Source: an uncultured Chlorobiaceae bacterium
GTDB taxonomy: Bacteria > Bacteroidota > Ignavibacteria > UBA10030 > SZUA-254
DNA: 64,000 bases
Direction of reading: 5' to 3'
Assembly (NCBI GenBank): GCA_964523395.1
Contig: CAZFXS010000004.1
Location: 141,581-205,580 of the forward strand
Numbering within the stretch: the stretch's first letter is position 1; each line of letters begins with the position of its first letter. Under the pieces are notes generated by a model that saw only the letters and a list, made by a program, of their open reading frames with translations, was not told where the DNA came from and made no database searches. Made by a program: the position numbers and the translations under genes. Shown here in pieces: positions 36,377 to 55,038 of this stretch.

Positions 36377-39300
36377 ATGGTGACAACACGTATTGATAAC
36401 AAACGGAACGCCATCTTCATTTTTTTTCTTCTCTGTCTGCTAGGATTCAACACCGGATCTCCGGCTCAACAGGCAAATCCTGCGTTAACGTTTTACACCG
36501 CAACTTCATTTTCACAAGGTGAATTCGGGTTCGGCCTTTCTGTCGTATCGGATTCTTCAATCTGGTATACTACAAATACCGGTGTGTTTCATTTTGACGG
36601 CCGCCGTTCGATGAAACATCTCGACGCATCCCGGTTTCATACATCGCAAATAGAAGTCCTTCTAATCGATGCCGTCTCCGATAACAACGTCTGGGTTCTC
36701 GGGCACGATTCGAAAACGTGGAAAAAAACAATGTTCCACTTCGATGGAAACACATGGAAGTCAGTTTCGTTTCCCCAGGTATTCACCGATCCGAATGATG
36801 ACCTCGTCGTCTTCAGACTGCGGATGTATTCATACAATAATCGTACACTCGGTTACGCCGCGGGACAGGATGGCCTTGTCTATATGTATGACGGAACCAC
36901 ATGGAAGATTATCCCGAGGTTTACCAACGAAACACTCCGCGGACTGCGGATCTATGCGCCAAACAATGTGTGGGTGGGCGGAAAAAACGGAGCAATATTT
37001 CATTACGACGGTCAGCGCTGGATTCCCGCCCAGTTTTCTGACGCCTCAAACAACATTTACTATTTTGATCTGGCATTTCCGTCACAAACAGACGGGTGGG
37101 CAGTTGGAAAAGGAGGCATAGCACATTTCAACGGACAAAGCTGGCGGACCGTTTCTACCCCCACTACATCTACAATTACCACAATCACCATGATTGCGGG
37201 GGATAACGGATGGGCGGTGACAGACAATGGTACGGTTCTCCATTATGATGGAATGCATTGGAACATCTTCAAACAAATGTCCCGGGATGCCGGCCTTACT
37301 TCTCTGCAGGCATTGGAACAACACGAAAAGTTTACTTTATATTTTCTTAATACGGAAGGGGTGGTCGTTTCGTATTGGGGAATTGTTCCTTCGTTTACCG
37401 ATGCGTCGGCATCTTCAAATATTCATCTGTATGGCGGAGACGCATTACTTGCTGATTTCGACAACAATCAAACTGAAGATTTGATAACATCGGCTTTCAC
37501 TTCCTTCCCCGACAGAATATACTCAAATCGTGGCGACGGTTTTTTTACTGAAATGACAAACCAATTACACACTACAAATACTCCTCTTGCAACCGCAACC
37601 CGGCTTGCAGACCTGGATAACAATGGATTTGTCGATGTGTACCAGACACAATCCCCGGCGCGCGACGTTTGGTACAGAAATTTCGGGTCGTGGAAATTTG
37701 AGCCTGTGACATCACCTGTTGCATTCCCCACCCTCGATGGCCGCTGTGTCTCAAAATTCGCCGACATGGACTGCGATGGCGACTTGGATTTAGTCTATAT
37801 GCAGAGCCAGGCATCGGAAGTTCAATGGCCATTTGCAATTTTTACAAACGACGGGATTGGAAATTTTTCACCCCCGAGAACTATTGGCCGGCCAATAGCT
37901 GCCGGGGGAATCACATACTCATTTTTTATTGCCAACCTTAATGACGACAACATCCCTGATCTCTTTAAATTCAATCTCGGCGATAAATGTGAATTATATT
38001 TTTATAACAGCGGTGAGGTGCGCGATACGGCAACCTGGGCTGGAGCTGACGGCACATTCTTCGCTGCATCTCCAAACATTACCTGGGCCGCCCCAATCGA
38101 TATCAATAATGATGGTTCAATGGATATTTGTATGGTCTCCAGAACAGGCCAGGCCGCGTTCTTCCTGAATAATGGGAAGGGAAAATTTACTCCCGCAAAT
38201 TCTCTTGCCTTCGATCCCCGTGGAGAAAATCCCATGGGAAATTTTACCGATATCGATTGCGACGGTGACATGGATTTATTTCTTGTCGATCGCTTTTATA
38301 AAAACGACAACGAAGCGTTCTCTGAGTACAGGGAAGTTTCGTTTCGCCAAACTTCTTTTCCAACGTTCAGCGACTTTGATGGCGACGGCGATCCTGATAT
38401 TATCACTTCGGCATATCGCGACAATGGCAGGTTGTATGTCCTGAAAAATGAGCTCAACCCCTCCGGCGCAGTCCGCATTTCCGTGAACGGCATCAGAAGC
38501 AATTCTTTTGGAGTTGGCGCCCGAGTCAATCTCTGGAAATATCATGATGCCGGCAAGGAACTTGTTGATGTCCGCGAAGTTATTTCGCCCGGCCCGCTCT
38601 ATTTCTACGTTGATTCCACCAACCGGTATGATCTTGATGTAAAGTTCCCAAGCGGAATCGAAGTTCATTCGGCTTCGATTCAACCCGGGACGCATGAAAT
38701 ATCAGAATTCTCTTTTCCGATGAATTACGTGTGGGATTTTTATTACTCGCTTCAGCGATCATGGAAATACACAAACGGAATACTGGAGCTCGTAAAACTC
38801 GGAATTTTTGGCGGGATGTTTATTGTCGCTTTTCGGGTTTCCAAAAAATTCAAAGCCGACCGGTACGTGCGCCATCCGTTATTTATTGCCGCCATGTTGC
38901 TTTTGTATATCCTCATCATCCATGCGACGGTTCGGAACGGAACGGTCATGGCAACAATTCTTCCGCTGGGAGCTGTACTTCTTATCAATGCCGGATGGGT
39001 TGCAACAACGCGCAACATCGTGCTTCGGCGGGAAGCAAATTATGTTTCTCATTTCAGATTGCTGGAACTCCTCGGCGAAGGAGGAATGGGAAAAGTATAT
39101 AAAGCCGCTGACAGCATCACAAAGAATATCGTAGCGGTAAAAGTTCTCAATCCGGCAATTATGAAAGATGTCGAAAACCGGAAACGGCTGAGAAACGAAG
39201 GCAATATTCTTTCGTCGTTTTCTCATCCGAACATTGTGAAAGTATTTGAGGTCGGAGAAACAGAAACACAAAGTTTTATCGCGATGGAATATCTGCCGGG

Positions 39301-39841
39301 CGGCACACTCCGGCAGCATCTCGAGAAAACGTATCCACTCCCCACACAAGAACTTGGCAGGATATTTTTACAGATATGCGACGGCGTGTCAGAAATTCAT
39401 TCGCGCGATATCGTCCATCGCGACCTGAAAACCGGCAACATTATGCTCGACGACAATACTAACATCCGCATTATGGATTTTGGATTGTCAAAGTCGCCGC
39501 TGGTAACAACCATGACCACACTTGGCACTGTCATCGGAACACTCGGCTATGTTTCACCGGAGCAAGTGACAAGTATGAATGTGGACCGCCGTGCCGATAT
39601 TTTTTCGCTCGGCGTGGTATTGTATGAATTACTCACAAACCAGCTTCCGTTCAAAGGTGAAAATGAAATTGCCGTTATCCACTCCATCTTCAATACGATT
39701 CCTCCTGCTCCTTCCACACTTACCACCGGTATTCCTTCCTCACTCGACGGAATTATCTCAACGTGTCTTCAAAAAAATCCCGACGACCGCTATCAGTCTG
39801 TCGCAGAACTCCGCGTTGCTCTTGAAAAGGAATTTTGCTAA
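36377..39841 (+). CDS. Receptor-like Ser/Thr kinase: signal peptide, (H/M)(Y/F)(D/N)G repeats, seven FG-GAP-like repeats, ASPIC/UnbV-like domain, three TMs, kinase
   Basis: Six H(F/Y)DG..W-type repeats; DFDNNQ, DLDNNG, DMDCDG, NLNDDN, DINNDG, DIDCDG, DFDGDG; GIRSNSFGVGARV; LGEGGMG, VAVK, HRDLKTGN, DFG, SPEQ. Confidence 0.88.
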   Translation: MVTTRIDNKRNAIFIFFLLCLLGFNTGSPAQQANPALTFYTATSFSQGEFGFGLSVVSDSSIWYTTNTGVFHFDGRRSMKHLDASRFHTSQIEVLLIDAVSDNNVWVLGHDSKTWKKTMFHFDGNTWKSVSFPQVFTDPNDDLVVFRLRMYSYNNRTLGYAAGQDGLVYMYDGTTWKIIPRFTNETLRGLRIYAPNNVWVGGKNGAIFHYDGQRWIPAQFSDASNNIYYFDLAFPSQTDGWAVGKGGIAHFNGQSWRTVSTPTTSTITTITMIAGDNGWAVTDNGTVLHYDGMHWNIFKQMSRDAGLTSLQALEQHEKFTLYFLNTEGVVVSYWGIVPSFTDASASSNIHLYGGDALLADFDNNQTEDLITSAFTSFPDRIYSNRGDGFFTEMTNQLHTTNTPLATATRLADLDNNGFVDVYQTQSPARDVWYRNFGSWKFEPVTSPVAFPTLDGRCVSKFADMDCDGDLDLVYMQSQASEVQWPFAIFTNDGIGNFSPPRTIGRPIAAGGITYSFFIANLNDDNIPDLFKFNLGDKCELYFYNSGEVRDTATWAGADGTFFAASPNITWAAPIDINNDGSMDICMVSRTGQAAFFLNNGKGKFTPANSLAFDPRGENPMGNFTDIDCDGDMDLFLVDRFYKNDNEAFSEYREVSFRQTSFPTFSDFDGDGDPDIITSAYRDNGRLYVLKNELNPSGAVRISVNGIRSNSFGVGARVNLWKYHDAGKELVDVREVISPGPLYFYVDSTNRYDLDVKFPSGIEVHSASIQPGTHEISEFSFPMNYVWDFYYSLQRSWKYTNGILELVKLGIFGGMFIVAFRVSKKFKADRYVRHPLFIAAMLLLYILIIHATVRNGTVMATILPLGAVLLINAGWVATTRNIVLRREANYVSHFRLLELLGEGGMGKVYKAADSITKNIVAVKVLNPAIMKDVENRKRLRNEGNILSSFSHPNIVKVFEVGETETQSFIAMEYLPGGTLRQHLEKTYPLPTQELGRIFLQICDGVSEIHSRDIVHRDLKTGNIMLDDNTNIRIMDFGLSKSPLVTTMTTLGTVIGTLGYVSPEQVTSMNVDRRADIFSLGVVLYELLTNQLPFKGENEIAVIHSIFNTIPPAPSTLTTGIPSSLDGIISTCLQKNPDDRYQSVAELRVALEKEFC

Positions 39842-39900: not shown

Positions 39901-41631
39901 ATGGCACAAACACCGAAATCATTCACCGACATCCAAAAACAAATCGGCGATAACATCAGCAGGCTTTCAACGATGTTTATGGAGGTTTCCGCCCTGGTAA
40001 AAACCGGCGGCAATTCAGCTGACATCCAGAAAAAAATCGACAAGCTTTTCATGGTTGTTATGGATTCTCATCGCTCGCTCGGCAATGAAATCGGTTCGAT
40101 GACCACTAAAGACGAAAAGATGGAAGAGCGATATGCTATTCTGCTGGAAGAAAAGCGACGCCTCGAAGTATTATATACATCGGGTATTGTGTTCTCTTCC
40201 GAAACGGAAATGCAAACATTAATGGAAAAAGCCATCGATATTGTTGTACATGAACTGAAAGCGGATGCGGGTTTTATTGTGCTGACTGACGCGAAAGGTG
40301 AAGTCGAATCTGTGTACGCCCGCAATATGAATCCCGACGACGCCACGGCGAAAGAGATGAGCATGTCAGTCATCCGAAATACCATCGGCCATTCAGCGCC
40401 GACGCAAGTAAATGACATCAACACCGAAGTACAGTTTTCCAAACAGCATAGTATCGTAAAGTTGGGCATTACTGCCGTTGTCTGTGTGCCTCTTGTATCG
40501 GGACAGCGCGTACTCGGCGCGGTCTATCTGGACCGCCGAAACAAAAACCTGCCGTTCACAGAAACCGACCTTGTGTTCCTTCTCGCGTTCGCCCGGCAGA
40601 TTGTGCGCGGGCTCGCGGTATCCTCGGAAATCGCGGCACTCGAGCAAAAATTGCTTGCCGAAGCGGCAATGAATTTTGATGACCTGAGAAAAGAGTTCAA
40701 TTGTACCAACATTATCGGCTCAAGCAAGAAACTGTTCGACGTGCTGAAAGTAGCGTCAAAAATCGCACCCACCGACGCATCCGTCGTGATCCTCGGCGAG
40801 AACGGCACGGGAAAAGACCTTCTCGCGCATGCGATTCACCGCAACAGCCCACGCGCGGACAAACCGTTTGTGACTATTAACTGCGGGGCAATACCGGCGG
40901 ATTTGCTGGAGTCGGAATTATTCGGGTATGATCCCGGCGCGTTTACCGGCGCGACGAAGTCAAAACCGGGAAAGCTTGAACTTGCCGACAGCGGTACAGT
41001 ATTCTTTGACGAAATCGGTGAGCTCAGCACCAATCTTCAGGCAAAACTCCTCCGTGTAATTCAGACAAAAGAGATTGAGCGGTTGGGCGGCGTTCTTCCT
41101 AAAAAAATTGACGTACGGATACTTTCCGCGACAAATAAAAACATCAAGGAAATGATTGCGAAAGGAGAGTTCCGCGAAGATCTTTATTATCGATTGAAAG
41201 TCATTGAACTGTCAATGCCCCCGCTCCGGGAGCGGAGGGAAGATATCGCGGATCTTGCCGGTGCATTTCTAAAAAAATATTCGACATCATCAGCGTTAAA
41301 CTTTTCTCCTGAAGCTCTTGACATCCTCGAGCAATATCCCTGGCACGGCAACGTGCGTGAGCTGGAAAATGTCATTCACCGGTGCACGGTGCTGGTGAAA
41401 AACAATACAGTGGAAGTTTCCGATCTGCCGCCTGAACTCATTCAGCAGGCAGAACAGGAACCGGGTATCAAGGTGGGAAAACCTCTGCTTGACGCGGAAA
41501 CTGAATTCCGCAGAATGTACATCATAAAAACCCTCCGCAAGTGCGGTTCCGTTGCCGAAGCGGCAAAAGAACTTGGCATCAACCGCACGCACTTCTATAA
41601 ACTCCTCAGCCAGTTGGAAATAGAATACTAA
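39901..41631 (+). CDS. Sigma54-dependent enhancer-binding protein (helical N-terminus, GAF, AAA+, Fis HTH)
   Basis: GAF (VCVPL...GAVYLD); GENGTGKD; GAFTGA; FFDEIGE; FREDLYYRL; AEAAKELGINRTHFYK. Confidence 0.94.
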   Translation: MAQTPKSFTDIQKQIGDNISRLSTMFMEVSALVKTGGNSADIQKKIDKLFMVVMDSHRSLGNEIGSMTTKDEKMEERYAILLEEKRRLEVLYTSGIVFSSETEMQTLMEKAIDIVVHELKADAGFIVLTDAKGEVESVYARNMNPDDATAKEMSMSVIRNTIGHSAPTQVNDINTEVQFSKQHSIVKLGITAVVCVPLVSGQRVLGAVYLDRRNKNLPFTETDLVFLLAFARQIVRGLAVSSEIAALEQKLLAEAAMNFDDLRKEFNCTNIIGSSKKLFDVLKVASKIAPTDASVVILGENGTGKDLLAHAIHRNSPRADKPFVTINCGAIPADLLESELFGYDPGAFTGATKSKPGKLELADSGTVFFDEIGELSTNLQAKLLRVIQTKEIERLGGVLPKKIDVRILSATNKNIKEMIAKGEFREDLYYRLKVIELSMPPLRERREDIADLAGAFLKKYSTSSALNFSPEALDILEQYPWHGNVRELENVIHRCTVLVKNNTVEVSDLPPELIQQAEQEPGIKVGKPLLDAETEFRRMYIIKTLRKCGSVAEAAKELGINRTHFYKLLSQLEIEY

Positions 41632-41883: not shown

Positions 41884-42858
41884 TTACGGAACCGCTTTCC
41901 CTCTTGCCGCCACAAACAATGCATACCACTCCTCACGGCTCAGTTCCACTTTATCTGCCAGACAACTTGCAATGATACGTTCCGGGTTTGTCGAACCGAT
42001 AATCGGCTGAATGCCTGCCGGATGCCGTAAAAGCCATGCGAGCATAATCGCCTCTTGAGAAGTTTGCTTTGTTTTTGCCATTGACGAAATCATTTCCGTA
42101 AGATTCCTCAATCGATCATCAGCTTGTTGAGTCTGATTAAACAGCCTACCGCCTGCAACCGGCGCCCATGCCTGAATCATAATATTGTTCAACCTGCAAT
42201 ACTCAAGTGTCCCCGGCGCGGACGTGTATTGTCCGCCTTCCATATTTGCCACAACACCTTCATTAATAAGATGATTGTGAAGAAGGTTCAGCTCGACCTG
42301 GTTGATAACAAGCGGCTGTTGTACGTATTTTTGCAGCAGCGCAATTTGTCCGGCGGTATGATTGCTTACACCGAAGTGGTGCACTTTTCCGTTTTTATGA
42401 AGCTCGTCGAATGCCCTTGCGACTTCCTCCGGCTCAACAAGCGGATCCGGACGGTGCAATAACAAAACATCAACATACTCTGTCCGGAGACGGCGCAGAC
42501 TTCCTTCAACCGCAGAGATGATATGTTCATAACTGAAATCATATCGTCCGGGAACACCGGCAGACGGATCGTCCTTGCGGCGGATGCCGCATTTTGTCTG
42601 GAGAATAATATTCGCGCGCATGCCGGGATGTTCTTGCAGAATTTCACCAAAGACCTGTTCCGATTTCCCGCGTGAATAAATATCCGCATGATCGAACAGC
42701 GTAATACCCTGTTCATATGCCGTCATAACAGCCGCAACCGCTTTCGACTTCTGATCAACGGATATGGGATTCCCATCCCACGATCCGCCGATGTTCATAC
42801 AGCCGTAGGCAATGCGAGAGAGAGTGAGATCGGTATGATAGATATGAAAAGTTCGCAT
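41884..42858 (-). CDS. Aldo/keto reductase (YdhF-like)
   Basis: YGCM, FDHADIY, TKCGI, DVLLLHRPDPL, GVSNH, PIIGS. Confidence 0.92.
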   Translation of the reverse strand: MRTFHIYHTDLTLSRIAYGCMNIGGSWDGNPISVDQKSKAVAAVMTAYEQGITLFDHADIYSRGKSEQVFGEILQEHPGMRANIILQTKCGIRRKDDPSAGVPGRYDFSYEHIISAVEGSLRRLRTEYVDVLLLHRPDPLVEPEEVARAFDELHKNGKVHHFGVSNHTAGQIALLQKYVQQPLVINQVELNLLHNHLINEGVVANMEGGQYTSAPGTLEYCRLNNIMIQAWAPVAGGRLFNQTQQADDRLRNLTEMISSMAKTKQTSQEAIMLAWLLRHPAGIQPIIGSTNPERIIASCLADKVELSREEWYALFVAARGKAVP

Positions 42859-42903
42859 GGTAGTTTTTCTTACCTTGGCCGTGACGCAGATTATTCCGTC
42901 AAT

Positions 42904-44139
42904 TTACTTAGTATCGGATTTTGGATCAACAATAGCTCCGACAAAAAGTATTAGACCGGTCTCATCATCTACAATTGCGAAGAAAAAAGGGTGGTCAACT
43001 ATCATTTCAAACGGCTTTGGTGGATCCGATCTAAGCGGCATGGTAGCGCAAACATCTAGCAACGTAATTGCGGCAGCTTCTGTCCCTTCTTCGTTCACGT
43101 CAAGATATGTTTTATGAATTACATCACTTATCATTACTGAAGATTGCGTCATTCGACTAAAATCCGCGCCCCCGTCGAACGCAATGCTCATGCCAAAGCT
43201 TTTCAACACATCAACCAAAGACGCAGCGTAATTTATCTTATACTTTGGCACACCGATTAGTCCGTATCGCCGAGAAACCGCGGATGTTGCCCTACTCCAC
43301 CCTGCCGTACTAAGACCTTCCAAAAAAAGGTGGATACCCTCTCGTTCTTGAGGAAGAACAATGCACATGCTAAATCGTTTACCATACGGAATGCTGACCA
43401 ATTGAAATTCTGAGCTTTCAAAATATTCAAATGTACCATATTGATGCATCCGTGGATATTTTTTCTCAGACCCACCAAGCAACATAAACGGCATCATTTC
43501 TGTTTGGATGGTTTCAAACGGTTTTGTCCATTCACCATTGAAGTAAATCGCGTTAAGAATGACCAGGAGATCATCTTTCTTAAATTGATCGATAATTTTA
43601 TCGATCTTCCCATGTGTCTTATTCCTCACCCATTCATTTATTTCTTCTGTCGCGGATGGTTGCGCAAAATCCTTCACGAAGGTTTCAACAGAATACTGTT
43701 CATTGCAATCTTTCACAAACTCTGGCTTGAGTTCAAACGGTTCGTTTAACCAAAGTGAGTTCGCGATGTTGAGCTCTGCCGAACTATCTGGTACCATTAA
43801 TAAATTCATTAAAAGGGAATTTGACTTGTTAATCCTGTCTTGTGTAAACTCCTGGAGCTGTAGCGCTGTCTTGATTGAAGTTTCCGTTGCCCCGGCTGCA
43901 CCGTTGTTGATAATAGAAAGCGCGTAAAAGATACTTACAGGGGAAATAAATATGTTTTTTTCTGGTTCCCGTGAAGCCAAGGTTTTCAGAAGTTTAAAAC
44001 CAAATTCATTGACGGCGGATATGTAATCGATGTTGATTTCTGATTTCCGAGTACCGTCTTGAAAAGCAGCGCTTTGCTTCGCGCAAAAAGGTAGGAGGGT
44101 CACAAGTGCCGCAAGATATTTGACTGTATCAATGTTCAT
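42904..44139 (-). CDS. Secreted serpin (serine protease inhibitor)
   Basis: NIFISPVSI, LNAIYFNGEW, hinge EEGTEAAA, DHPFFFAI...LFVG; N-terminal signal-like segment. Confidence 0.93.
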   Translation of the reverse strand: MNIDTVKYLAALVTLLPFCAKQSAAFQDGTRKSEINIDYISAVNEFGFKLLKTLASREPEKNIFISPVSIFYALSIINNGAAGATETSIKTALQLQEFTQDRINKSNSLLMNLLMVPDSSAELNIANSLWLNEPFELKPEFVKDCNEQYSVETFVKDFAQPSATEEINEWVRNKTHGKIDKIIDQFKKDDLLVILNAIYFNGEWTKPFETIQTEMMPFMLLGGSEKKYPRMHQYGTFEYFESSEFQLVSIPYGKRFSMCIVLPQEREGIHLFLEGLSTAGWSRATSAVSRRYGLIGVPKYKINYAASLVDVLKSFGMSIAFDGGADFSRMTQSSVMISDVIHKTYLDVNEEGTEAAAITLLDVCATMPLRSDPPKPFEMIVDHPFFFAIVDDETGLILFVGAIVDPKSDTK

Positions 44140-44166
44140 GGGGTATATCTCCTTTGTTAAGATTTT

Positions 44167-45006
44167 TTAAACCACCTTCCAATATGCCGCGCTGTCATCA
44201 ATCTTTTCAAGATTGCATTGAATAGAATTCAACGCAATAAATTCCGTCACAGCACGCCTGCACGCTGGCCAAGAGTAGTAATCATCCACAATAACAAATC
44301 CGCCCTTGTTGACTTTGTGATAAAGATTCGTTAACGCATCCATCGTTAATGAGTAGAGGTCGCCGTCGAGACGGAGAACCGCAAGCTTGTCAACCGGCGC
44401 GCTCGGAAGAGATTCATTAAACCACCCCGGAATGAATTTCACGTTGTCATCCAGCAATCCGAAACGTTCAAAATTCGATTTTACTTTTTCCATGGAAACT
44501 TTCAGGTAATCGTTTTGGCTCATATCCCAACCATCATCACCCGATTTCGGTGCCGGCAATCCTTCGAATGAATCCGCCGGCCAGATATTCCGTTCGGTGA
44601 TATTGTGCGCTTTCAAAAGCGCGCGGAAGAAAATTGCAGTTCCGCCGCGCCAGACTCCGGTTTCAATAAAATCGCCTGGAACGTTGTTGCGCAACACTTC
44701 TTCAACACAATACTGGACGTTATCCAGCCTCCGGTGTCCCACCATAGTATAACAGACAAGCGGCCAGCCGCTTCCTTCGTCGCGTTCATGCTGACTGAAC
44801 GCGCGTTGTTTCACCAGCAAAAGATTTTTCTTCTTCAGAAACTTCACAAGCGCGTCACGGAGAGGCACAATGACCGGCCGCAGTACCGGTGGAACCGCAA
44901 ACCCCGGTGTCCCCGAATGAATCAGTGCCCACGAACTTTCATCGTAGATGGAGCCTGTAAGAATTTTTTTCAACAGCTCGAGATATTGGTGGTCAGCTTC
45001 TGTCAT
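44167..45006 (-). CDS. TylF/MycF/NovP-family O-methyltransferase
   Basis: TMVG.RRLDN, GDFIETGVWRGG, DSFEGLP, PGWF.ESLP, LRLDGDLY, VDDY; start at ATG 45006. Confidence 0.92.
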   Translation of the reverse strand: MTEADHQYLELLKKILTGSIYDESSWALIHSGTPGFAVPPVLRPVIVPLRDALVKFLKKKNLLLVKQRAFSQHERDEGSGWPLVCYTMVGHRRLDNVQYCVEEVLRNNVPGDFIETGVWRGGTAIFFRALLKAHNITERNIWPADSFEGLPAPKSGDDGWDMSQNDYLKVSMEKVKSNFERFGLLDDNVKFIPGWFNESLPSAPVDKLAVLRLDGDLYSLTMDALTNLYHKVNKGGFVIVDDYYSWPACRRAVTEFIALNSIQCNLEKIDDSAAYWKVV

Positions 45007-45529: not shown

Positions 45530-45601
45530 TTTTTTTGGAACATGCTCTCGAATGTACCCATAACTTTGCAGAAACTCAATGCTTTCCTTCATGCCGGTGT
45601 G

Positions 45602-45663
45602 TGTCGCCCGATACCGACATCAACACGCCAATCAGCCATCTCTTTTGTCGCCCTGTAACGACA
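45602..45663. promoter_or_regulatory. Two candidate enhancer (UAS) palindromes
   Basis: TGTCG-CCCGATAC-CGACA (45602-45619) and TGTCG-CCCTGTAA-CGACA (45646-45663), 44 bp apart. Confidence 0.7.
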
Positions 45664-45777: not shown

Positions 45778-45972
45778 ATGCAAAAACACATACTCATCAT
45801 CGATGATGATACACAGGAGCTTCGCAAGTTAAGAGAGATTCTTACACGCGAAGGGTACGATATCATGACGGCAACTGATAAGCAGACGGCAATTCAGATT
45901 TCCGAGAAAGTACCAATCGGTTTTATCCTTGCAAAAGCATCGATGCTCGGTTTTCCCAATGAAAAACAATAA
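45778..45972 (+). CDS. Half-receiver micro-protein (64 aa) lacking the phospho-acceptor Asp
   Basis: ILIIDDD...LREILTREGYDI.TA; third strand GFILAK has no Asp; protein ends there. Confidence 0.75.
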   Translation: MQKHILIIDDDTQELRKLREILTREGYDIMTATDKQTAIQISEKVPIGFILAKASMLGFPNEKQ

Positions 45973-46002: not shown

Positions 46003-48096
46003 ATGAACACTTTGTTGAAAACGATTTGTATTGCTCTTTGCGTTTATACAACCGGTCTGTCTCAATGGCTGCAAACTTCGGGTCCGGAAGGCGGCGCCGC
46101 CTTCGCAATCTTTGCCGACGGCAGTAATCTCTACGCGGGTATGGCGGGAAATGCCGGAGTGTTCCGGTCAACCGACGGCGGTGCGACCTGGGAGCAAAAA
46201 ATCAACGGCATGAACTATCAGTCCACCACTGTTATTAGCAAAAGCGGTTCCTATCTTCTCGCCACCGGAACTGTCGGTTTGTACCGCTCAACCGATAACG
46301 GCGACACCTGGGTTGCGGCTACAGGATTACCGCCGGGACACGGCGTGAACTCACTGGCAGTTGACGGAGCGAATGTTATCGCGGGAACATCCGGAAAAGG
46401 CATTTATGTTTCAACCGATAATGGCGATACATGGACACCTGCAAGCACAGGACTTCCCGGCGCAGGCGCCACCACCACGGTCGGAAATGTTGTTATCAAC
46501 GGTTCAACCATTCTCACCAGCGCTTCGGATTTCGGTACGACAACAACAATGTACCGTTCCACAAATTTTGGCGCTTCATGGACAGCGGCTGCGACCGGCC
46601 TTCCCGCCGATTATTCATTGTATTACGGAATGTGCATCGACGGATCTACAATCTATGCCGGCGGCGCGTATCTTTATAAAACTACCAACAACGGCGACAC
46701 CTGGACACCGGTCGAGAATGGAATTCCCAACTACTCCAGCATCATGAGTATTTCCGCAAACGGGACTTCCATCTTCGCGGCTGCAATGAATTACATCTAC
46801 CGCACTACGGATGGCGGCTCTAACTGGAGTCCAGCAACCGGCGGTTTGCCGTTTATGAATTTCATGTCGGTACGGATTGCAGGTTCAACTGTCTACGCCG
46901 GTTCAATTGCCAATGGTATATACAGTTCAACGGATAATGGGGTCACGTGGACACAAAAAGTCAACGGTTTAAAGGCAAGAGATATGAGTGGATTCCTTAT
47001 CGACGGGACGACGCTCTATGCCAACGGCAACAGCATATTCAAGACTTCAGATAACGGAGATACGTGGGAGAATGTTCGCGGCAATCTTAAAGACTCCTCA
47101 AGCATGCCTACACTTGTGTATGTCAACGGTTCAACGATGTTCGAACGCGATTTCCCGGCGACAGGCCTCGAGCGTTCAACGGACGGCGGCGCTACATGGA
47201 CTGTCGTTGGCAACGGTTTGTCACCATTCGGCACTGTCACCGGAATCGTCGATGTCCCTGGCGGATTGCTGACTGCCAGCAACCGTGTCTATAAAAGCAG
47301 TGATAACGGCGATAACTGGGTGCAGGTTGATTCATCGCTTGGATTGTTTGTCAGTTTTTCAGCTTTGACAAAAATCGGCACTACTGTTTATGCATATGGA
47401 CTCGGGGTTGCCAAATCCACAGACGACGGGGCAACATGGGTAAAAGCCGATTCTGGTTTGCCGGCGTTTTATTCACCGTCTACTCTTGTCGGAAATGGTT
47501 CAGGTTTATACGTATCAAGCGGGTTTACGTCTGGCATCTATCGTTCAACCAATGACGGGCAATCATGGTCGTTGTGGACCAGCGGCGCTTATTCACAACT
47601 GCTCATTCACGGAAACGACCTTTTCGGATGCCGGGACAATGACGGCATCTTCATTCGTAAAAACTTCACAGGCGCTTTTACCAGAATTTCTACCGGGCTG
47701 CCGAGCCCTAATTTCCTTTACACGTTTGTCATCCACAATGGATGGATGTTTGCAGGTACCGGCGGTAATAGTGTCTGGCGCAGGCCTTTGTCGGATGTTA
47801 CGGCTGTGGAAGAGATCGCCGGAACTCTTCCAACGGAGTTTATGCTTTCTCAGAATTATCCAAACCCGTTTAATCCAATGACAAACTTCGAATTACGAAT
47901 TGCGGATTTCGGATTTGTGACGCTTCGGGTGTACGATGTACTTGGAAGGGAAGTTACATCTCTGGTGAACGAGACGCTTCAACCCGGGACCTACAAAGTA
48001 TCGTGGGACGCAGGCAATCAGACCAGCGGAGTTTATTATTATAAACTACAGGCGGGAAATTATTCCGAAACGAAAAAGATGTTGCTCGTCAAATAA
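46003..48096 (+). CDS. T9SS type A sorting-domain protein with BNR/Asp-box propellers
   Basis: Signal peptide; many S(T/S)D(N/G)G.TW Asp-boxes; QNYPNPFNP...VYDVLGREV...GTY...GVYYYKL...KKMLLVK. Confidence 0.9.
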   Translation: MNTLLKTICIALCVYTTGLSQWLQTSGPEGGAAFAIFADGSNLYAGMAGNAGVFRSTDGGATWEQKINGMNYQSTTVISKSGSYLLATGTVGLYRSTDNGDTWVAATGLPPGHGVNSLAVDGANVIAGTSGKGIYVSTDNGDTWTPASTGLPGAGATTTVGNVVINGSTILTSASDFGTTTTMYRSTNFGASWTAAATGLPADYSLYYGMCIDGSTIYAGGAYLYKTTNNGDTWTPVENGIPNYSSIMSISANGTSIFAAAMNYIYRTTDGGSNWSPATGGLPFMNFMSVRIAGSTVYAGSIANGIYSSTDNGVTWTQKVNGLKARDMSGFLIDGTTLYANGNSIFKTSDNGDTWENVRGNLKDSSSMPTLVYVNGSTMFERDFPATGLERSTDGGATWTVVGNGLSPFGTVTGIVDVPGGLLTASNRVYKSSDNGDNWVQVDSSLGLFVSFSALTKIGTTVYAYGLGVAKSTDDGATWVKADSGLPAFYSPSTLVGNGSGLYVSSGFTSGIYRSTNDGQSWSLWTSGAYSQLLIHGNDLFGCRDNDGIFIRKNFTGAFTRISTGLPSPNFLYTFVIHNGWMFAGTGGNSVWRRPLSDVTAVEEIAGTLPTEFMLSQNYPNPFNPMTNFELRIADFGFVTLRVYDVLGREVTSLVNETLQPGTYKVSWDAGNQTSGVYYYKLQAGNYSETKKMLLVK

Positions 48097-48130: not shown

Positions 48131-50230
48131 ATGAAAATGTTTGTGTGTGTGCTCGCGACTATTGTGCTCTGTAACATTGCAGCGGCTCAATGGATACAAA
48201 CAAATGGTCCATCCGGCGGTACTGTGACACGTCTTGTCACTAATGAGACAAACGGTTACCTTTTTGCGCTGGCAAGCGGTGACGCGTACCGTTCAACCGA
48301 TCAAGGTACCACCTGGACGCGAAGCACTGCCAGTCTTCAGGCAAATCTCGGCGCTACTACAATAACAGCATCGGGAACATCGGTCTATATCGGCATCGGA
48401 AGCGGAAATACCACATATATCCTCTCCCGTTCGACCGATAACGGCGACACATGGACACCGGCAACCGCAACAGGCATACCGGCATTCTATATTCCTTCCG
48501 CAATGACAGTTACCGGTTCCAGACTGCTGCTCTACGCAACCTACCTTCTTGGTGGAGGAAAAATGTTCGCTTCCACCGACGGAGGTGAAAATTTTACCGA
48601 ATCCGGAGCAGGTTTACCGACCAATTTCGCCGCAGGATATTTTACGCAGAAGGGTTCAACAATCTTTGCCAGCAACACTAACCCGGGAATCTATCAATCG
48701 ACTGATAATGGAGTAAACTGGACAAAATCCAATTCTACCATCGGAGGCATCACCGGATTGACATCAAACTCTTCAGGAGTCTTTGTTTCTACCAGCACAA
48801 CCGGAGTTTACCGATCTAATGGCACGGATACGGTCTGGACAAAAATTAATCCCGACACTCCGTCGAACTTTACTTCTTCGATTCTCGCGACATCCACAAA
48901 TCTTTTCATTGCTCTTGGCGGCGCGATGATGCGCGCAGACCAAAATGGTGGCTCGTGGGACAGTGCACGCGTCGGACTCCCACCGTATAACGCAGGCACA
49001 GCCATCAGCGCCATTACTAAAACCGGTTCAAGCATCCTCTGTGCGTACGCAAAGCACGGCATTTACCGCACTACCGATAACGGCGTAAACTGGTTTCAGT
49101 CTCACGAGGGAGTGAAGTCGTTAAAAATCAACGGCATTCATGCAAGCAATGGATATTTATTTGCAGCGGGAGATCAATATGGGAATTTCAGAAGCGCCGA
49201 TCACGGAGACACGTGGACAGAAATCAACAATGGTATTTCCGTAACAGCTGGCTGGTTTTGTTTTGCGCGCGTCGGATCAGATGTGCTCGCAGGCGCCGGT
49301 TCATCTCTGCTGTACCGGAGTTCAGATAACGGAAATAACTGGACATTAAGCAACTCCGGATTCGCTCTTACCAACTCATTCGCGTTTTATGTTGAAGGCA
49401 ACACCGTCTACACCACAGGAGCAGCCGGTGTATCGAAATCGACAGATGGCGGATTGACGTGGAACACGCTTCCTGCGGGTTATCTCTTCTATGAAGGAGG
49501 GCTCGATATCTGGAAAGACGGTTCGAACATCCTGACCGGGTCTAATGTCGCAAGTCATCGCTCAACCGATGACGGTGCGTCATGGACAACAACCGCCGGA
49601 GCGATAGGAGCATTTACACAAATGGATTCAGTTCTTTTCAACGCTTCGCTTACTCTTGGTGTAAGAAAATCAACAGATCATGGTGCGAGCTGGACGGCGA
49701 CAGGAAGTTTTCCGTTTACGGTTGGCCCGCAATGTCTTACGGCCAAAGGGCAGGATCTTTATGCCGGAACGAATGACGGTGTTTATCGCTCAACAAATTA
49801 CGGAACTACGTGGACTGCAATTAATGACGGCTTTGCCCCGAAAACCTCTATCTACAAAATAACATTTGACGACCAGTATCTTTATGCGGGGACAGTTACG
49901 CGCAGTGTCTGGCGGCGGCCGCTTTCCGAAATCACTGACGTGAAGGAAATCTCTCAGGAAATTCCCTCTTCATATTCTCTCAGCCAGAATTATCCGAACC
50001 CGTTTAATCCAACGACAAATTTCGAATTACGAATTGCGAATTTCGGATTTGTGTCGGTGAAAATATTTGATGTGCTTGGAAACGAAATAACGACGCTGGT
50101 AAATGAATCGCTACAACCCGGAACTTACAATGTATCTTGGAATGCAAGCAATCAGCCCAGCGGCGTGTATTATTACAGGCTTTCGTCAGGGTCATTTTCC
50201 CAAACAAAAAAATTATTACTGATGAAATAA
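48131..50230 (+). CDS. T9SS type A sorting-domain protein with BNR/Asp-box propellers (paralog 2)
   Basis: Same architecture; GGAAG upstream. Confidence 0.9.
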   Translation: MKMFVCVLATIVLCNIAAAQWIQTNGPSGGTVTRLVTNETNGYLFALASGDAYRSTDQGTTWTRSTASLQANLGATTITASGTSVYIGIGSGNTTYILSRSTDNGDTWTPATATGIPAFYIPSAMTVTGSRLLLYATYLLGGGKMFASTDGGENFTESGAGLPTNFAAGYFTQKGSTIFASNTNPGIYQSTDNGVNWTKSNSTIGGITGLTSNSSGVFVSTSTTGVYRSNGTDTVWTKINPDTPSNFTSSILATSTNLFIALGGAMMRADQNGGSWDSARVGLPPYNAGTAISAITKTGSSILCAYAKHGIYRTTDNGVNWFQSHEGVKSLKINGIHASNGYLFAAGDQYGNFRSADHGDTWTEINNGISVTAGWFCFARVGSDVLAGAGSSLLYRSSDNGNNWTLSNSGFALTNSFAFYVEGNTVYTTGAAGVSKSTDGGLTWNTLPAGYLFYEGGLDIWKDGSNILTGSNVASHRSTDDGASWTTTAGAIGAFTQMDSVLFNASLTLGVRKSTDHGASWTATGSFPFTVGPQCLTAKGQDLYAGTNDGVYRSTNYGTTWTAINDGFAPKTSIYKITFDDQYLYAGTVTRSVWRRPLSEITDVKEISQEIPSSYSLSQNYPNPFNPTTNFELRIANFGFVSVKIFDVLGNEITTLVNESLQPGTYNVSWNASNQPSGVYYYRLSSGSFSQTKKLLLMK

Positions 50231-50274: not shown

Positions 50275-52440
50275 ATGAACATACTGTTACAGATCTGCCT
50301 GATTATCGTTGCAACATCGCTGACAGTTGCACAGCCTTTTTGGGAACGGTTGCCGGGACCAAATGCTACTCACAGCATTAATTGCCTTAAGGAGGATGCC
50401 GCCGGTGGAAAATTGTATGCCGGTACTGCCCTCGGTGGCGGGATATATGTATCGGCCGATAACGGGGCTACGTGGTCCCTTAAAGCTTCTGGTTTGGATC
50501 CGAACGCTTCAATCCTTGATATTGAAACCGATAACGCCGGCAACGTGTACGCCCTTGGTGTTAAAACATACAAATCAACAAACGGAGGCGATACATGGGA
50601 AAAACTTGACAATAGCACCGACGGCATGACTACATTACATATTACATCCGGAGGAGTTATTTTTGCAGGGCAAGAAACAGCTGTAGGAAACGGGATTACC
50701 AGATCAACCGATGGCGGAACTACCTGGGAATTTGCCAGAACCGGCCTTCCCACAACCATTCTCGGCCCATTCACCTATTATCGCAGTGTCTCGAGTATTA
50801 CCTCCGATGGTTCCGGAAATCTCTACTGCACAGTAAATGGCGGAAATGCGTCCACTGAAGCCGGAGTGTACAAATCAACAAACAATGGCGATACATGGAC
50901 ACGCACAAGCAACGGTTTGCTTGCAAACGTTAGCGTCGAGCCGGTACTGTACAGTCCGAACGGAATGATATATGCCGCGGTCAGAAACCGGGTGTACCAC
51001 AGCACTGACGCAGGCGCAAGCTGGGTTCTCGGCGATTCCATTCCAATGGCGAACTCCACCCTCATCAGCCGGCTGGCGGTGAATTCTTCGCATCAGATTT
51101 TTGCAGGTACAACGGCCGGAGTCTTCCGTGCCGCGAAAGGCGGAATTGGCTGGGCTTCAATCAACGTTCCTTCAAGCAGTAATTACGATTTCATTGTTAC
51201 TTCAGCAAACGCATACCTTGCGGCACCCCTTGAGATCTGGGGAACGCACGGCGGCATTCACCAATCAACCGACGATGGGGCTACATGGAACACATTAAAC
51301 AACGGCATAAATAACACACCGACATTCGCTCTCAAAGTCGGCTCCTCCGGCGTTATTTTGAACGGACTTGGCGGCGGCAGAGTTGAATTCTCTTATGATA
51401 ATGGTGCCACATTTACGCGGGCGTATCTTTCATACACCGGCCTCTTCACATTTGCTGCTCTTGCCGCGTTTGAAGAGAATCCTTCCGGCACCATTGTCGC
51501 AGCAACCGGAGAAGGGCTGCACACATCAACTGATCAAGGTGTTACGTGGACTAAAACATCGTCAGTCTCAAATCAGCGCGCATTGACATTAGACCAGAGC
51601 GGGAATTTTTTCGCAGCCAACGGAAGCGGCGCGTACAAATCAACAGATAACGGACAAACGTGGAATTCACTCGGCGGGGGCGGTGATGCCTATGGCATAT
51701 TGGTAACACAGGCCGGTACAATTCTGACAGGAACGTATAACAGCGGTGTTAACCGCACAACCGACGGCGGTACAACATGGACGAATTCGGGTACCATCGT
51801 GTTTGGTAATGTAACGATAGGAAAATTTGTTCAGCTTGACAATGGAACGATTTATACGCACGCTCTTCTCGGAATTTTCAAATCGACGGATGACGGCGCA
51901 ACATGGGCAGCCCTGACAGGAACACCCATTGGCGTACAATCCAGGAAAATTGAAAGCACCGGCAATATATTACTGCTTGGTACTCCGGAGGGGCTTTACA
52001 AAACCATAGACGGCGGCGCAAACTGGACAAAACACGCCGACGGCCTCATGAATACTGTTCTCGATCATCTTTCTGTTGGACCCGATGGACGGTTGTACGG
52101 CGCAGGCGGCGCCGGAATTTACCGCACAACAAATCCGATTACCACCGGCGTCGAACTATCATCCAATATCATTCCATCAGCGTTCGAACTTACACAGAAT
52201 TATCCGAACCCGTTTAACCCAATGACAAATTTCGAATTACGAATTGCGAATTTCGGATTCGTGACGTTACGTATTTACGATATGCTTGGAAAAGAAGTCG
52301 CATCGCTGATTAACAAAACGCTTCAACCCGGAATATACAAAGTTTCGTGGGACGCGGGTGCACAACCCAGCGGTGTATATTTTTACCGTCTCACCGCAGG
52401 TGAATTTAATCAAACAAAACAAATGATACTCATCAAATAA
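50275..52440 (+). CDS. T9SS type A sorting-domain protein with BNR/Asp-box propellers (paralog 3)
   Basis: GGAGG SD before ATG 50275; Asp-boxes; NYPNPFNP C-terminal domain. Confidence 0.9.
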   Translation: MNILLQICLIIVATSLTVAQPFWERLPGPNATHSINCLKEDAAGGKLYAGTALGGGIYVSADNGATWSLKASGLDPNASILDIETDNAGNVYALGVKTYKSTNGGDTWEKLDNSTDGMTTLHITSGGVIFAGQETAVGNGITRSTDGGTTWEFARTGLPTTILGPFTYYRSVSSITSDGSGNLYCTVNGGNASTEAGVYKSTNNGDTWTRTSNGLLANVSVEPVLYSPNGMIYAAVRNRVYHSTDAGASWVLGDSIPMANSTLISRLAVNSSHQIFAGTTAGVFRAAKGGIGWASINVPSSSNYDFIVTSANAYLAAPLEIWGTHGGIHQSTDDGATWNTLNNGINNTPTFALKVGSSGVILNGLGGGRVEFSYDNGATFTRAYLSYTGLFTFAALAAFEENPSGTIVAATGEGLHTSTDQGVTWTKTSSVSNQRALTLDQSGNFFAANGSGAYKSTDNGQTWNSLGGGGDAYGILVTQAGTILTGTYNSGVNRTTDGGTTWTNSGTIVFGNVTIGKFVQLDNGTIYTHALLGIFKSTDDGATWAALTGTPIGVQSRKIESTGNILLLGTPEGLYKTIDGGANWTKHADGLMNTVLDHLSVGPDGRLYGAGGAGIYRTTNPITTGVELSSNIIPSAFELTQNYPNPFNPMTNFELRIANFGFVTLRIYDMLGKEVASLINKTLQPGIYKVSWDAGAQPSGVYFYRLTAGEFNQTKQMILIK

Positions 52441-52455
52441 TCAGGAGAACAATCA

Positions 52456-55038
52456 ATGCGTACAGTACTCTTCTTCCTCACTGTTGTTGCTCTGCTTGTT
52501 GCTTTGCCGGTCGATCTTCCCCTTCTGGCCCAGGCAAAAGCGCCGGTGTGGAAAGAAAACCTCGGGGAAAAAATCATCGATTATCACTTCCTCCAGGATG
52601 GAAAATACCTTTTCTTTATTAACGGTAAATGGATGTGGTTGTATGACGCCAAGACCGGACAGAATATCTACAAGCACGAAGTTGATGATTTTGAGGGCGA
52701 CGGTATTCACAACCTTGTGGACAATAATAAGAAGTATCTTGTTAGCTCAGGGAATAAATTGCTTTGCTACGACCCTCTTACCGCCAAAATCATCTGGCAG
52801 CAGGAATATAAAGATATCAGCCAGGACGATTTTACGGATTTTGATTATGCCGGCAACAACGCGGTGATGCGATACGGGAATAAGCACATCGGCTTCAACC
52901 TTGAAACGGGGAATGAAGTATGGCGGAATGAAATAGAATACAACGGCGATTTGATGTTAAAGGGATCGGCAAACTGGTTTGAAGTATATGATTACGACCG
53001 CTTTATCGTCTGCGCGCCCGGGGATAACGTCCGCTTCTACAAACTTAGTGACGGACAGATGTTCCACGAGGAAAAGGACATTGAACCGAACGGCGATATT
53101 GTCGATGCGGGCAATAACTGGTACTACCGTACTGATGATGACAAATTTCTTCTGATGGTTGTGAATGACGGGGCATTATTGCTGGACATCCCGAATAATA
53201 AAATCGTTGCAAGACATAAATTCGGTGTCGGCGGCGATAAACCTGTGCTGGTGCCAACCACTGTTGGCTGCGCGATTCTCGGGAAAGAAAAAATCGTCCA
53301 CTTTAATTTTGCAACAATGCAGGTAACCGAAGTAGCATTTCCTCTGGACGATGTCCGCACCCTTCACACGTACAACGTTGCTGGAAAAGATTTGATGGTC
53401 TTCGGCGGTGACAGCAAAATGGCTGCCGTCGATCTCGTCGCCGGCAAACTGCTCTGGCAATCCGTAAAGGATGATAAGAACTTCGAAGGTTACGCGCACC
53501 ATTACGAAGAATCATTAGACGGAAAAACGCTTGTGTACGGCAACAATATCGTCTTCACATACAATAATCCGAACATCAGCGGTGATGAAAAAGGGACAAA
53601 TCTTTATCTTATGAGCGTCGATGCGCTTTCAGGAAAAGTAAATTACCGCGTGAAGGTAGGGCTCGGTGCATTCGTTATGACAAGCTTCACGCGCGGGCTT
53701 GCGAAAGTTATGACAAGCCTGTCAACCGGTTTTATGGCTGTTGCCTCAGCAGGAATGGCGGCAAACCCCGCCATGGCCGCGCAGGCACGTGTCAACGATA
53801 TGCTCGGATGGAACAACATCGGTTTTGATTATGAACTTGTTCCATTCAACGGCAATATACTCGTCGTTCTCAATACGACTGCGCACATGCAAAATCCTGA
53901 CACCAAAGATGATGGCGGTGAAGGATTTGTGTTAGTTGATCCCAACTCTGGAAAAATAATCTACAAGGATTACTTTGAACTCAGTGATGACGGCCAGGGA
54001 GGATTGGAACCGCCGCCGGTACGCGGCGATTTCGTCATCGAAAAGAACATCGCGTATATGACAGGGAAAAACCGTGTTGTTGCGTTCGATCTTAGTGCGG
54101 GAAAACGGCTCTGGACACTCGAAAAAGAAATGAAGAAAGATTTTCCTGTCGACCTTGCGTACATCGACGGTACATTGTTCTGCAAGTTCGGTAAAATCGA
54201 ATACAGCACCGCACTGGAAAAAGACGATATCAAGGTAACCGAAGGATGGAAAAAAGATCCGTATGGTTTCTGCGCGATTGATCCCTCCAGCGGAAAAATC
54301 CTCTGGCGTGTCGAAACGAAGAAAGATCCCGGGTTCTCTACTCCGTACTTCTCAATCGAACGCTACTATAATCCAAACACAAAGCAGCTTTATTTTGCCG
54401 ACGAAGAAAATGTGTACGGATTAAAACTTTCGAAGGATGGCGGCAAATATGACTGGACATACAACCTCGAGAAGAATAAAGTCGGAAAAATCAAACAGGA
54501 TGAATCGTACGCCATTAATAAAACGTGGCTCGGCATGGACCGCAAGGTTACGCAAACCGATTATTACTTCGGCGGAAGTTTCGCGTACAGCGTGAAAACA
54601 GATATCGGCGGCGTCAGCCAGAAAGGCGTTGCGGAATTTATGGACGACGCCATGAACGCCGAACTTTCTTCAACATACGAAAGCTGGGGAAACCACTGGG
54701 GCGTCAGCGCCAACCATTGCCTGCGCGTGTTATTTAACGGGAGCAGAATTCTTGCGATCGGTCCTGATGGTGTCGGTTACATCGATCCCGTCACCGGAAA
54801 AGGAGAGTGGGTGCATGATTGGAATTACGATAAAGGCGAAGTCCGCCTCCTTCCTCAGGTTATCGGCAGTAAATTTCTCTACTGTATTAAACAAAAACTG
54901 ACGCTGGTGGATTTGCAGAATGGTTCAAAAGTCTGGCAAGCGGAAGAAGCATCACATCCCGGCTTTTTCTTTGCGCCGGATGAGTCCGGGTTATACTCAA
55001 TCGATGACGAGGATATTTCGGGATACAATCTTAAGTAA
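52456..55038 (+). CDS. Exported PQQ-like (BamB-type) beta-propeller repeat protein
   Basis: Signal peptide; repeated .D..TG(K/N)..W motifs; GGAG SD; no T9SS CTD. Confidence 0.82.
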   Translation: MRTVLFFLTVVALLVALPVDLPLLAQAKAPVWKENLGEKIIDYHFLQDGKYLFFINGKWMWLYDAKTGQNIYKHEVDDFEGDGIHNLVDNNKKYLVSSGNKLLCYDPLTAKIIWQQEYKDISQDDFTDFDYAGNNAVMRYGNKHIGFNLETGNEVWRNEIEYNGDLMLKGSANWFEVYDYDRFIVCAPGDNVRFYKLSDGQMFHEEKDIEPNGDIVDAGNNWYYRTDDDKFLLMVVNDGALLLDIPNNKIVARHKFGVGGDKPVLVPTTVGCAILGKEKIVHFNFATMQVTEVAFPLDDVRTLHTYNVAGKDLMVFGGDSKMAAVDLVAGKLLWQSVKDDKNFEGYAHHYEESLDGKTLVYGNNIVFTYNNPNISGDEKGTNLYLMSVDALSGKVNYRVKVGLGAFVMTSFTRGLAKVMTSLSTGFMAVASAGMAANPAMAAQARVNDMLGWNNIGFDYELVPFNGNILVVLNTTAHMQNPDTKDDGGEGFVLVDPNSGKIIYKDYFELSDDGQGGLEPPPVRGDFVIEKNIAYMTGKNRVVAFDLSAGKRLWTLEKEMKKDFPVDLAYIDGTLFCKFGKIEYSTALEKDDIKVTEGWKKDPYGFCAIDPSSGKILWRVETKKDPGFSTPYFSIERYYNPNTKQLYFADEENVYGLKLSKDGGKYDWTYNLEKNKVGKIKQDESYAINKTWLGMDRKVTQTDYYFGGSFAYSVKTDIGGVSQKGVAEFMDDAMNAELSSTYESWGNHWGVSANHCLRVLFNGSRILAIGPDGVGYIDPVTGKGEWVHDWNYDKGEVRLLPQVIGSKFLYCIKQKLTLVDLQNGSKVWQAEEASHPGFFFAPDESGLYSIDDEDISGYNLK

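Follow-up and report, generated by a model that had tools for sequence, protein, structure and literature searches.

A putative sigma-54 regulatory module combining a receptor-type Ser/Thr kinase, a GAF-domain activator and a half-receiver protein in uncultured Ignavibacteria-like bacteria

In Myxococcus xanthus, Hanks-type Ser/Thr kinases take the place of histidine kinases in feeding sigma-54 activators, and the FHA-domain enhancer-binding proteins (EBPs) of this species were reportedly described by Jelsbak, Givskov and Kaiser in 2005. EBPs oligomerise and spend ATP to open the sigma-54 closed complex, and in this established biology a GAF region may gate the AAA+ domain (PMC7175178, PMC7057263, PMC2941729), GAF-mediated repression of the AAA+ domain being established for NorR (PMC2941729). 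The hybrid two-component systems (HTCS) of Bacteroides serve polysaccharide utilisation loci as glycan sensors (PMC3243724, PMC3404733) and bind oligosaccharides (PMC3243724). The regulation of surface proteins and of proteins secreted via T9SS (type IX secretion system) is almost entirely unknown in the metagenome-assembled genomes (MAGs) of Ignavibacteriota, Calditrichota and Chlorobiales. The subject of this study is a stretch of 64,000 nucleotides, hereafter the window, from an uncultured Chlorobiaceae bacterium (GenBank assembly GCA_964523395.1, contig CAZFXS010000004.1, positions 141,581 to 205,580), in which genes for a receptor-type Hanks Ser/Thr kinase and a GAF-domain EBP lie upstream of a sigma-54-type promoter and a gene for half a receiver domain (mini-REC). 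Each of these parts is of a known kind, be it the EBP, the sigma-54 promoter, the Hanks kinase or the T9SS cargo. The module they form is real, recurs in many uncultured Ignavibacteria-like genomes and is apparently undescribed; the literature yielded no relevant description of a kinase/GAF-EBP/half-receiver system or of sigma-54 control of T9SS cargo, in keeping with the initial annotation of the window, which knew of no system with this architecture.

The kinase gene (36377..39841, forward strand, 1154 amino acids; Pfam, motif and transmembrane scans) is followed after 59 nt by the EBP gene (39901..41631, forward strand; Pfam and motifs). Beyond a block of genes on the opposite strand, a 186-nt intergenic region contains two exact TGTCG-N8-CGACA palindromes as upstream activating sequences (UASs), of which the distal one, TGTCGCCCGATACCGACA (45602..45619), is a presumed EBP binding site and the proximal one, TGTCGCCCTGTAACGACA (45646..45663), lies 44 bp from it. 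An A/T-rich spacer and the sigma-54-type -24/-12 element GGCACGGGATTTGT (45725..45738, forward strand; motif match) complete this region, with a transcription start predicted at about 45750. The mini-REC gene (45778..45972, forward strand, 64 amino acids), recognised by a partial Response_reg match, an AlphaFold2 (AF2) model and its conservation, is followed on the same strand by genes for three BNR/Asp-box propeller proteins (46003..48096, 48131..50230 and 50275..52440) and a PQQ_2/BamB-like propeller protein (52456..55038), with gaps of 30, 34, 44 and 15 nt. A terminator-like hairpin (55067..55100, forward strand) with 14 pairs and a T-rich tail after them, the best of the region, likely marks the end of the transcription unit after the PQQ_2 gene. 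The short gaps of 15-44 nt and the lack of internal terminators suggest that mini-REC and the four propeller genes would be transcribed together up to this terminator at 55067. The genes, coordinates and gaps given by the initial annotation, and its description of the downstream unit as a half-receiver, three T9SS Asp-box proteins and a PQQ-like propeller, are borne out by the open reading frame (ORF) listing and by Pfam and NCBIfam.

A scan of metagenomes with the half-receiver alignment returned about 30 further loci (all loci compared here are designated by L numbers), and in every locus with enough DNA an EBP orthologue adjoins mini-REC, either upstream on the same strand or in convergent orientation. 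When one genome of each GTDB species was searched with the EBP, just four full-length orthologues came up, at 60-65% identity and all in Ignavibacteriota or "Bacteroidetes" MAGs; each of them has the kinase directly upstream and the half-receiver gene downstream. The UAS and promoter were compared upstream of the half-receiver start in 28 non-redundant loci, with up to one mismatch allowed in the palindromes. There, 37 palindromes occur in the 8.9 kb upstream of mini-REC genes versus nine in 425 kb elsewhere in the same loci, a roughly 200-fold enrichment, and their family consensus is TGTCGC-N6-GCGACA. They are usually paired at spacings of 21-22, 33-36 or 44 bp, corresponding to about two, three or four helical turns, suggesting that the paired sites lie on the same face of the DNA. 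A GG[CT]A[CT]-N5-TTG element is found within 120 nt 5' of mini-REC in 25 of the 28 loci (approximately 134-fold enriched); the centre of the proximal palindrome lies 58-205 bp upstream of this element. In the window itself, two exact palindromes compare with 0.08 expected, a count reached in one of 100 shuffles, and about 72 bp separate the centre of the proximal palindrome from the -24 GG downstream of it. GGCACGGGATTTGT is the sole GGCAC-N5-TTGY match in the 64 kb, and since one is expected by chance it is not significant alone; the window promoter would be unconvincing by itself and draws its significance from the relatives. This conserved footprint is the main evidence from which the palindromes are inferred to be the EBP enhancer and GGCACGGGATTTGT a sigma-54 promoter. 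The integration host factor (IHF) site of the layout proposed in the initial annotation was abandoned as evidence: the IHF-like AATCAATTATTTC at 45685 has one mismatch, and such matches occur at chance frequency (86 in the window versus 84 expected). Autoregulation of the kinase/EBP operon was also considered and rejected, as no UAS precedes the kinase genes and the nine palindromes elsewhere are scattered. The comparison proposed in the initial annotation, on whether kinase, EBP, palindromes and half-receiver are conserved together, found the kinase directly 5' of the EBP in 15 loci and the palindromes, -24/-12 element and half-receiver retained with one another. Judged from these sequences, the invariant core of the module comprises the EBP, the UAS, the sigma-54-type promoter and mini-REC, the last being the only invariant gene of the predicted activated unit. 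The kinase is a modular input that is often present, and T9SS propellers are one of the optional outputs.

The genes that follow mini-REC differ among the loci. One to three BNR/T9SS propellers are encoded in the window, L001, L081, L087, L088, L106, L135 and L137, and L135 repeats the window order of kinase, EBP, a 61-residue half-receiver, a sortilin/T9SS protein and a PQQ_2 protein. The cargo is a lipoprotein and/or a small protein resembling an outer membrane protein (OMP) barrel in L003, L004, L093, L107, L110 and L114, and a DUF6588 protein in L104, while in L002 none follows for 1.7 kb and in the convergent clade there is no cargo at all, the EBP gene coming next after mini-REC on the other strand. 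With no cargo following it, mini-REC would be the sole driven gene in some loci. Where they can be read, the downstream genes encode products with signal-peptide-like N-termini or OMP- or lipoprotein-like products. The secreted propeller operon proposed as the output by the initial annotation is thus present in the window, as one of several alternative cargos, mini-REC being the constant. Among the window propellers, BNR protein 1 is sortilin/Ycf48-like, with a signal peptide and a T9SS type A C-terminal domain, and all three BNR proteins carry a Por_Secre_tail (30.5-35.5 bits, PF18962 cut-off 27; TIGR04183 37-42 bits, cut-off 23), as assigned for proteins 2 and 3 by Pfam/NCBIfam, and qualify as T9SS type A cargo, which combines such a tail with an N-terminal signal peptide; the PQQ_2 protein (Pfam) has a signal peptide and no detectable T9SS tail, neither PF18962 nor TIGR04183 giving a match. 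BNR protein 1 shows weak likeness to GH74 and Ycf48 structures, and a GH74 identity for the BNR proteins was dropped, the match being weak and partial (E 3e-9, about 160 residues). No protein of the module reaches an equivalog cut-off in the NCBIfam scan. The DNA between EBP and promoter likewise varies from about 150 nt to 4 kb and holds unrelated genes in each lineage. In the clade with a short gap between EBP and mini-REC, a gene for a GH77 4-alpha-glucanotransferase follows mini-REC or the small OMP gene (L083 10364-12382, L093 9620-11672 and L110 10935-11135, truncated in L110), as does a TerB-like gene in L083 and L093. In L002 (12920-16296), the approximately 1.7 kb without long ORFs 3' of mini-REC are succeeded by typA/bipA as two ORFs; a frameshift, a pseudogene and an error of assembly are all possible reasons for this split.

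The window kinase matches Pkinase (PF00069, 1.1e-58), FG-GAP_3 (2.7e-26) and, weakly, Ycf48/BNR in Pfam. It is predicted to be active because all catalytic motifs are present, including GEGGMGKV (GxGxxG), VAVK, HRDLKTGN (HRDLKxxN), DFG and SPE. The ectodomain consists of a Ycf48/BNR-like propeller, FG-GAP/VCBS repeats and an ASPIC-like part, and contains five D-x-[DN]-x-[DN]-G-x-x-D (Ca-loop) motifs. An N-terminal signal or anchor, three transmembrane-like segments at approximately residues 801-877 and a C-terminal kinase domain (transmembrane scan) give the predicted topology of a eukaryote-like receptor kinase, with the N-terminal sensor outside, in the periplasm, and the kinase inside. PknD and PknB similarly couple a Hanks domain to an extracytoplasmic propeller or repeat sensor, but the topology is reversed here, with the sensor N-terminal and the kinase C-terminal after three transmembrane segments. 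The match to the PknB/Stk1 PASTA family (NF033483) is confined to the kinase domain and reaches 299.8 bits versus a cut-off of 450; both the PknB and PknD equivalog cut-offs are unreached, and PASTA and NHL domains are absent. In L001 (6656-9958), L086 (3878-7114) and L088 (1934-5191), the kinase ectodomain is instead composed of Reg_prop and Y_Y_Y, as in HTCS, and lacks Ycf48-like, FG-GAP and ASPIC parts, while the kinase domains of these three remain 63-64% identical to that of the window, pointing to a swap of the whole sensor module on a conserved kinase domain. The Ca-binding propeller ectodomain of the initial annotation agrees with the FG-GAP_3 match and the Ca-loop motifs, but as these orthologues indicate it is not a fixed feature of the family. 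As in HTCS, a periplasmic Reg_prop and Y_Y_Y sensor is thus found on these kinases, and a membrane sensor stands over genes for exported, probably carbohydrate-related proteins in bacteria of the Fibrobacteres-Chlorobi-Bacteroidetes (FCB) group. The output differs, being a Ser/Thr kinase domain and a separate sigma-54 EBP here versus the fused HisKA/HATPase/REC/AraC of HTCS: the Reg_prop/Y_Y_Y kinases carry Pkinase alone, with no HisKA, HATPase, REC or AraC. The window kinase differs further in its Ycf48-like plus FG-GAP/ASPIC sensor, and no SusC/SusD genes are present.

The kinase gene lies directly 5' of the EBP gene in 15 distinct loci (the window, L001-L004, L081, L083, L086, L088, L104, L106, L114 and L135-L137), and this adjacency is kept at kinase identities as low as 32%. 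Among loci with called gene coordinates, the gap is 59 nt in the window and about 36 nt in L081 and L083, while the genes overlap in L135 and the ORFs do so in L004; in many of the loci the kinase gene ends only a few nucleotides from the EBP start or runs into it. In L136, a gene for a phosphatase of the protein tyrosine or dual-specificity type (6015-6527) is intercalated between kinase and EBP. A word-index search with the kinase ectodomain gave about nine full-length clusters among those scored. Three further family members were looked up from the kinase side, and a locus was recovered for L135 and L136 and not for the Calditrichota kinase P0055; both recovered loci place the kinase upstream of the EBP. 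Genes for T9SS-tailed proteins also occur directly 5' of the kinase gene in L001 (5398-6534), L003 (53-1360) and L135 (6806-7927).

The EBP contains GAF, Sigma54_activat (PF00158, 1.5e-68) and HTH_8 (25.4 bits, cut-off 22) domains and the motifs GENGTGK (Walker A), VFFDE (Walker B) and GAFTGA. As the initial annotation had stated, neither a REC nor an FHA domain is detected in it (Pfam; FHA at E <= 0.01). The AF2 model of its N-terminus (residues 1-280) places helices at 6-34 and 39-118 ahead of the GAF domain, and with a pLDDT of 68, a moderate confidence, it is used for secondary structure only. In its GAF, AAA+ (GAFTGA) and Fis-type HTH architecture, and in the tandem palindromic UAS 60-200 bp 5' of the -24/-12 element, the system resembles those of NifA, NorR and FhlA; the N-terminal helical hairpin is an addition not shared with these proteins, the partner gene encodes a Hanks kinase, and the target is a half-receiver gene rather than nif, nor or hyc genes. 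The NifA site is TGT-N10-ACA, in contrast to the TGT-N12-ACA (TGTCGC-N6-GCGACA) found here. NifA is the best-scoring named family (TIGR01817), at 381 bits and below the equivalog cut-off of 528.85, and by these family scores the EBP is classed as distinct from NifA, and the kinase as distinct from PknB and PknD. With the kinase/FHA-EBP networks of M. xanthus the module shares the idea of a Hanks kinase acting into a sigma-54 activator, here as predicted from gene order. It differs from them in that the EBP has no FHA domain, the kinase, a receptor whose ectodomain is N-terminal, shares an operon with the EBP, the target is a conserved half-receiver and the lineage is FCB, not Myxococcota.

In the proposed mechanism, EBP dimers would occupy a single TGTCGC-N6-GCGACA site or two of them that share one face of the DNA, as suggested by co-conservation, and, following established EBP biology, would oligomerise and spend ATP to open the sigma-54 closed complex 60-200 bp downstream. 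The promoter would always drive mini-REC plus any genes for envelope or secreted proteins that come after it. The receptor kinase, presumably co-transcribed with the EBP here and in many relatives, would bring in an extracytoplasmic input and would most likely phosphorylate the N-terminal helical/GAF region of the EBP, lifting the inhibition of AAA+; three observations suggest signalling by Ser/Thr phosphorylation, namely that the operon arrangement is conserved, that the sensor has been swapped and that a phosphatase gene is intercalated in L136. The HTCS-type sensor of some relatives and the exported BNR/GH74-like cargo hint that the periplasmic sensor may bind a glycan or surface polymer. 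Mini-REC, not phosphorylatable on Asp, would most likely feed back on the EBP or the kinase through its alpha1 face, which is speculative. On balance, the evidence tips slightly towards a sigma-54 regulatory module that works in this way and is conserved in Ignavibacteriota and their relatives within the FCB group.

Several observations weigh against this reading. No kinase adjoins the EBP in L091, L093, L094, L101, L102, L110 or the Chlorobiales locus L139, with whose MAG the convergent clade of L094, L101 and L102 is syntenic, so that the place given to the kinase in the circuit by the initial annotation applies to the 15 loci above and not to these. The EBP of the kinase-less loci must function with no kinase gene beside its own, and the true sensor may be its GAF domain. 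A search for kinase-specific Ser/Thr residues in an alignment of 19 EBP orthologues found none that separates kinase-linked from kinase-less proteins, and a shared propeller type in kinase sensor and cargo was discarded when BLASTP of the N-terminal propeller against BNR protein 1 gave a best E of 4.6. The cargo is not conserved, which leaves the link proposed between an extracellular ligand and secreted propellers weak. No RpoN box was found within the 64-kb window. The GG and spacing of the window promoter fit TGGCAC-N5-TTGC, but its -12 reads TTGT, not TTGC, a departure from the convincing -24/-12 layout claimed by the initial annotation, and the base after TTG varies across the family (C in 12 loci, T in eight, A in four and G in three), TTGC being the commonest.

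The main rival explanation, a real possibility if a somewhat unlikely one, holds that the EBP is governed by a small cytoplasmic ligand bound in its GAF domain, as are NifA, NorR and FhlA, with the kinase a dispensable accessory, a modulator or an enzyme acting on another substrate, and with adjacency reflecting co-expression. The GAF domain is well conserved among all EBP orthologues whether or not a kinase is present, and this, the seven loci in which the kinase is missing and the standing of NifA as the closest named family by score all speak for such control. On the other hand, adjacency persists down to 32% kinase identity, includes stop/start overlaps and survives the sensor swap, a phosphatase gene stands between kinase and EBP in L136, and all kinase family members with a recovered locus adjoin this EBP.

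The mini-REC protein matches Response_reg (PF00072) over profile positions 1-52 of 111, at 27.6 bits and below the gathering cut-off of 30.2. In the protein search the family comprises 46 clusters, all of 59-85 amino acids and mostly of exactly 64, and of 30 loci whose start was read, 28 have ATG at the aligned position. Compared in pairs, the genes differ by 0.35/0.19/0.63 at the three codon positions, indicating that mini-REC is under purifying selection, and a pseudogene or chance ORF is ruled out by this pattern, the conserved length, the ATG start and the protein conservation. The AF2 model (41 sequences, pLDDT 87) has a beta1-alpha1-beta2-alpha2-beta3 order with a short additional helix, and Foldseek aligns it with numerous receiver domains, among them ArcA, PhoP, Spo0F and NtrC1, over their first half, with query-normalised TM-scores (TMq) of 0.7-0.8 (48-50 residues, rmsd about 1 Å). 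D9, the first acidic residue, does not vary, while the phospho-acceptor Asp is lost, the position after the invariant L51 at the end of beta3 being Ala or Gly in 28 of 28 loci, and the receiver fold lacks its second half. Mini-REC is thus receiver-derived and without a phospho-acceptor Asp, as are pseudo-receivers (PMC12632262), but unlike these and the single-domain response regulators it is of half length and lacks the T/K/switch residues and the alpha4-beta5-alpha5 face; the review of pseudo-receivers makes no mention of half-length proteins (PMC12632262). The best-conserved stretch is alpha1 with the next turn (E14 L15 R16 x L18 R19 E20 x L22 T23 R24 E25 G26), and by helical periodicity it includes residues on the exposed face. 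In true receivers, the alpha1 surface docks onto the helical hairpin of the histidine kinase. The conserved exposed alpha1 face, being like this docking surface, suggests a conserved protein partner, for which the N-terminal helical hairpin of the EBP, always co-occurring with mini-REC, is a speculative candidate.

Residues T23, T31 and T37 of mini-REC are invariant and T12 and T33 nearly so. In a further alternative, mini-REC itself would be the kinase substrate, and phosphorylation on Thr would create a Ser/Thr-phosphorylated receiver analogue acting on the EBP or other targets. The invariant Thr residues in so short a protein, the lost Asp and the co-occurrence of the kinase, EBP and mini-REC genes agree with such a role, but the identical Thr residues are conserved in kinase-less loci and are thus not kinase-specific, making this alternative improbable. 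A wider proposal, more tentative than the regulatory module itself and best regarded as doubtful, is a hitherto unrecognised FCB pathway in which a sigma-54 activator answers not to a histidine kinase but to a receptor Ser/Thr kinase whose glycan-type sensors are interchangeable, and in which the free-standing half-receiver, as the dedicated and invariant product of the activator, docks by alpha1 on a DHp-like hairpin of the EBP (or on the kinase) to close a feedback loop. Mini-REC would then represent a natural functional half of the receiver fold.

If the module works as proposed, it would constitute a conserved means by which receptor kinases of eukaryote-like type act on sigma-54 transcription with neither FHA nor receiver domains involved, and would define a new small-protein family in which half a receiver domain is the dedicated target of an activator. 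The UAS consensus, promoter and cognate activator would together provide a code for predicting regulons in Ignavibacteriota, Calditrichota and Chlorobiales MAGs. The swap to HTCS-type sensors would point to glycan signals, connecting the module with the breakdown of polymers in sediments and groundwater.

It is very improbable that the palindromes bind another regulator, that an ordinary sigma-A promoter serves mini-REC and that the -24/-12 resemblance is fortuitous: the -12 without a canonical C, the one GGCAC-N5-TTGY match per 64 kb expected by chance and an intergenic region shared with a divergent RDD gene and containing weak sigma-70-like matches would allow it, but 25 of 28 diverged loci have the motif and its GG-N10-G spacing at the corresponding position, always with the UAS and a neighbouring EBP, and most relatives have no divergent gene. 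This RDD membrane protein is encoded in the opposite-strand block (41884..45592, reverse strand; Pfam) together with an aldo/keto reductase, a serpin and a TylF-like methyltransferase. Because the content of the gap between EBP and promoter differs in every relative, the block is interpreted as an insertion outside the module. The serpin gene (42904-44139, reverse strand; Serpin 3.8e-107), between the aldo/keto reductase and TylF genes, encodes a predicted secreted bacterial serpin. L137, the closest relative, shares the block but not this gene, whose absence from the otherwise collinear locus gives it the appearance of a recent insertion in the window. The TylF and RDD ORFs overlap by 146 nt (44993-45138), and TylF has 289 amino acids in L137 versus 323 here; the overlap and the shorter L137 protein suggest that the real TylF start is probably further downstream.

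Elsewhere in the window, the ORF upstream of the kinase gene (35144-35875) has no family match. A sigma-54-like sequence, TGGCATTTTTCTTGT, occurs at 19257 on the reverse strand, within the thyX ORF (18341-19321) at its 5' end, with no palindromic UAS near it, and may be due to chance. A gene for an IS200-like Y1 transposase is located at 17651-18199 (reverse strand), and at 26484-29005 (reverse strand) a gene for a DtxR/MntR-type metal repressor stands beside one whose product joins an Nramp transporter and a Usp domain in one protein.

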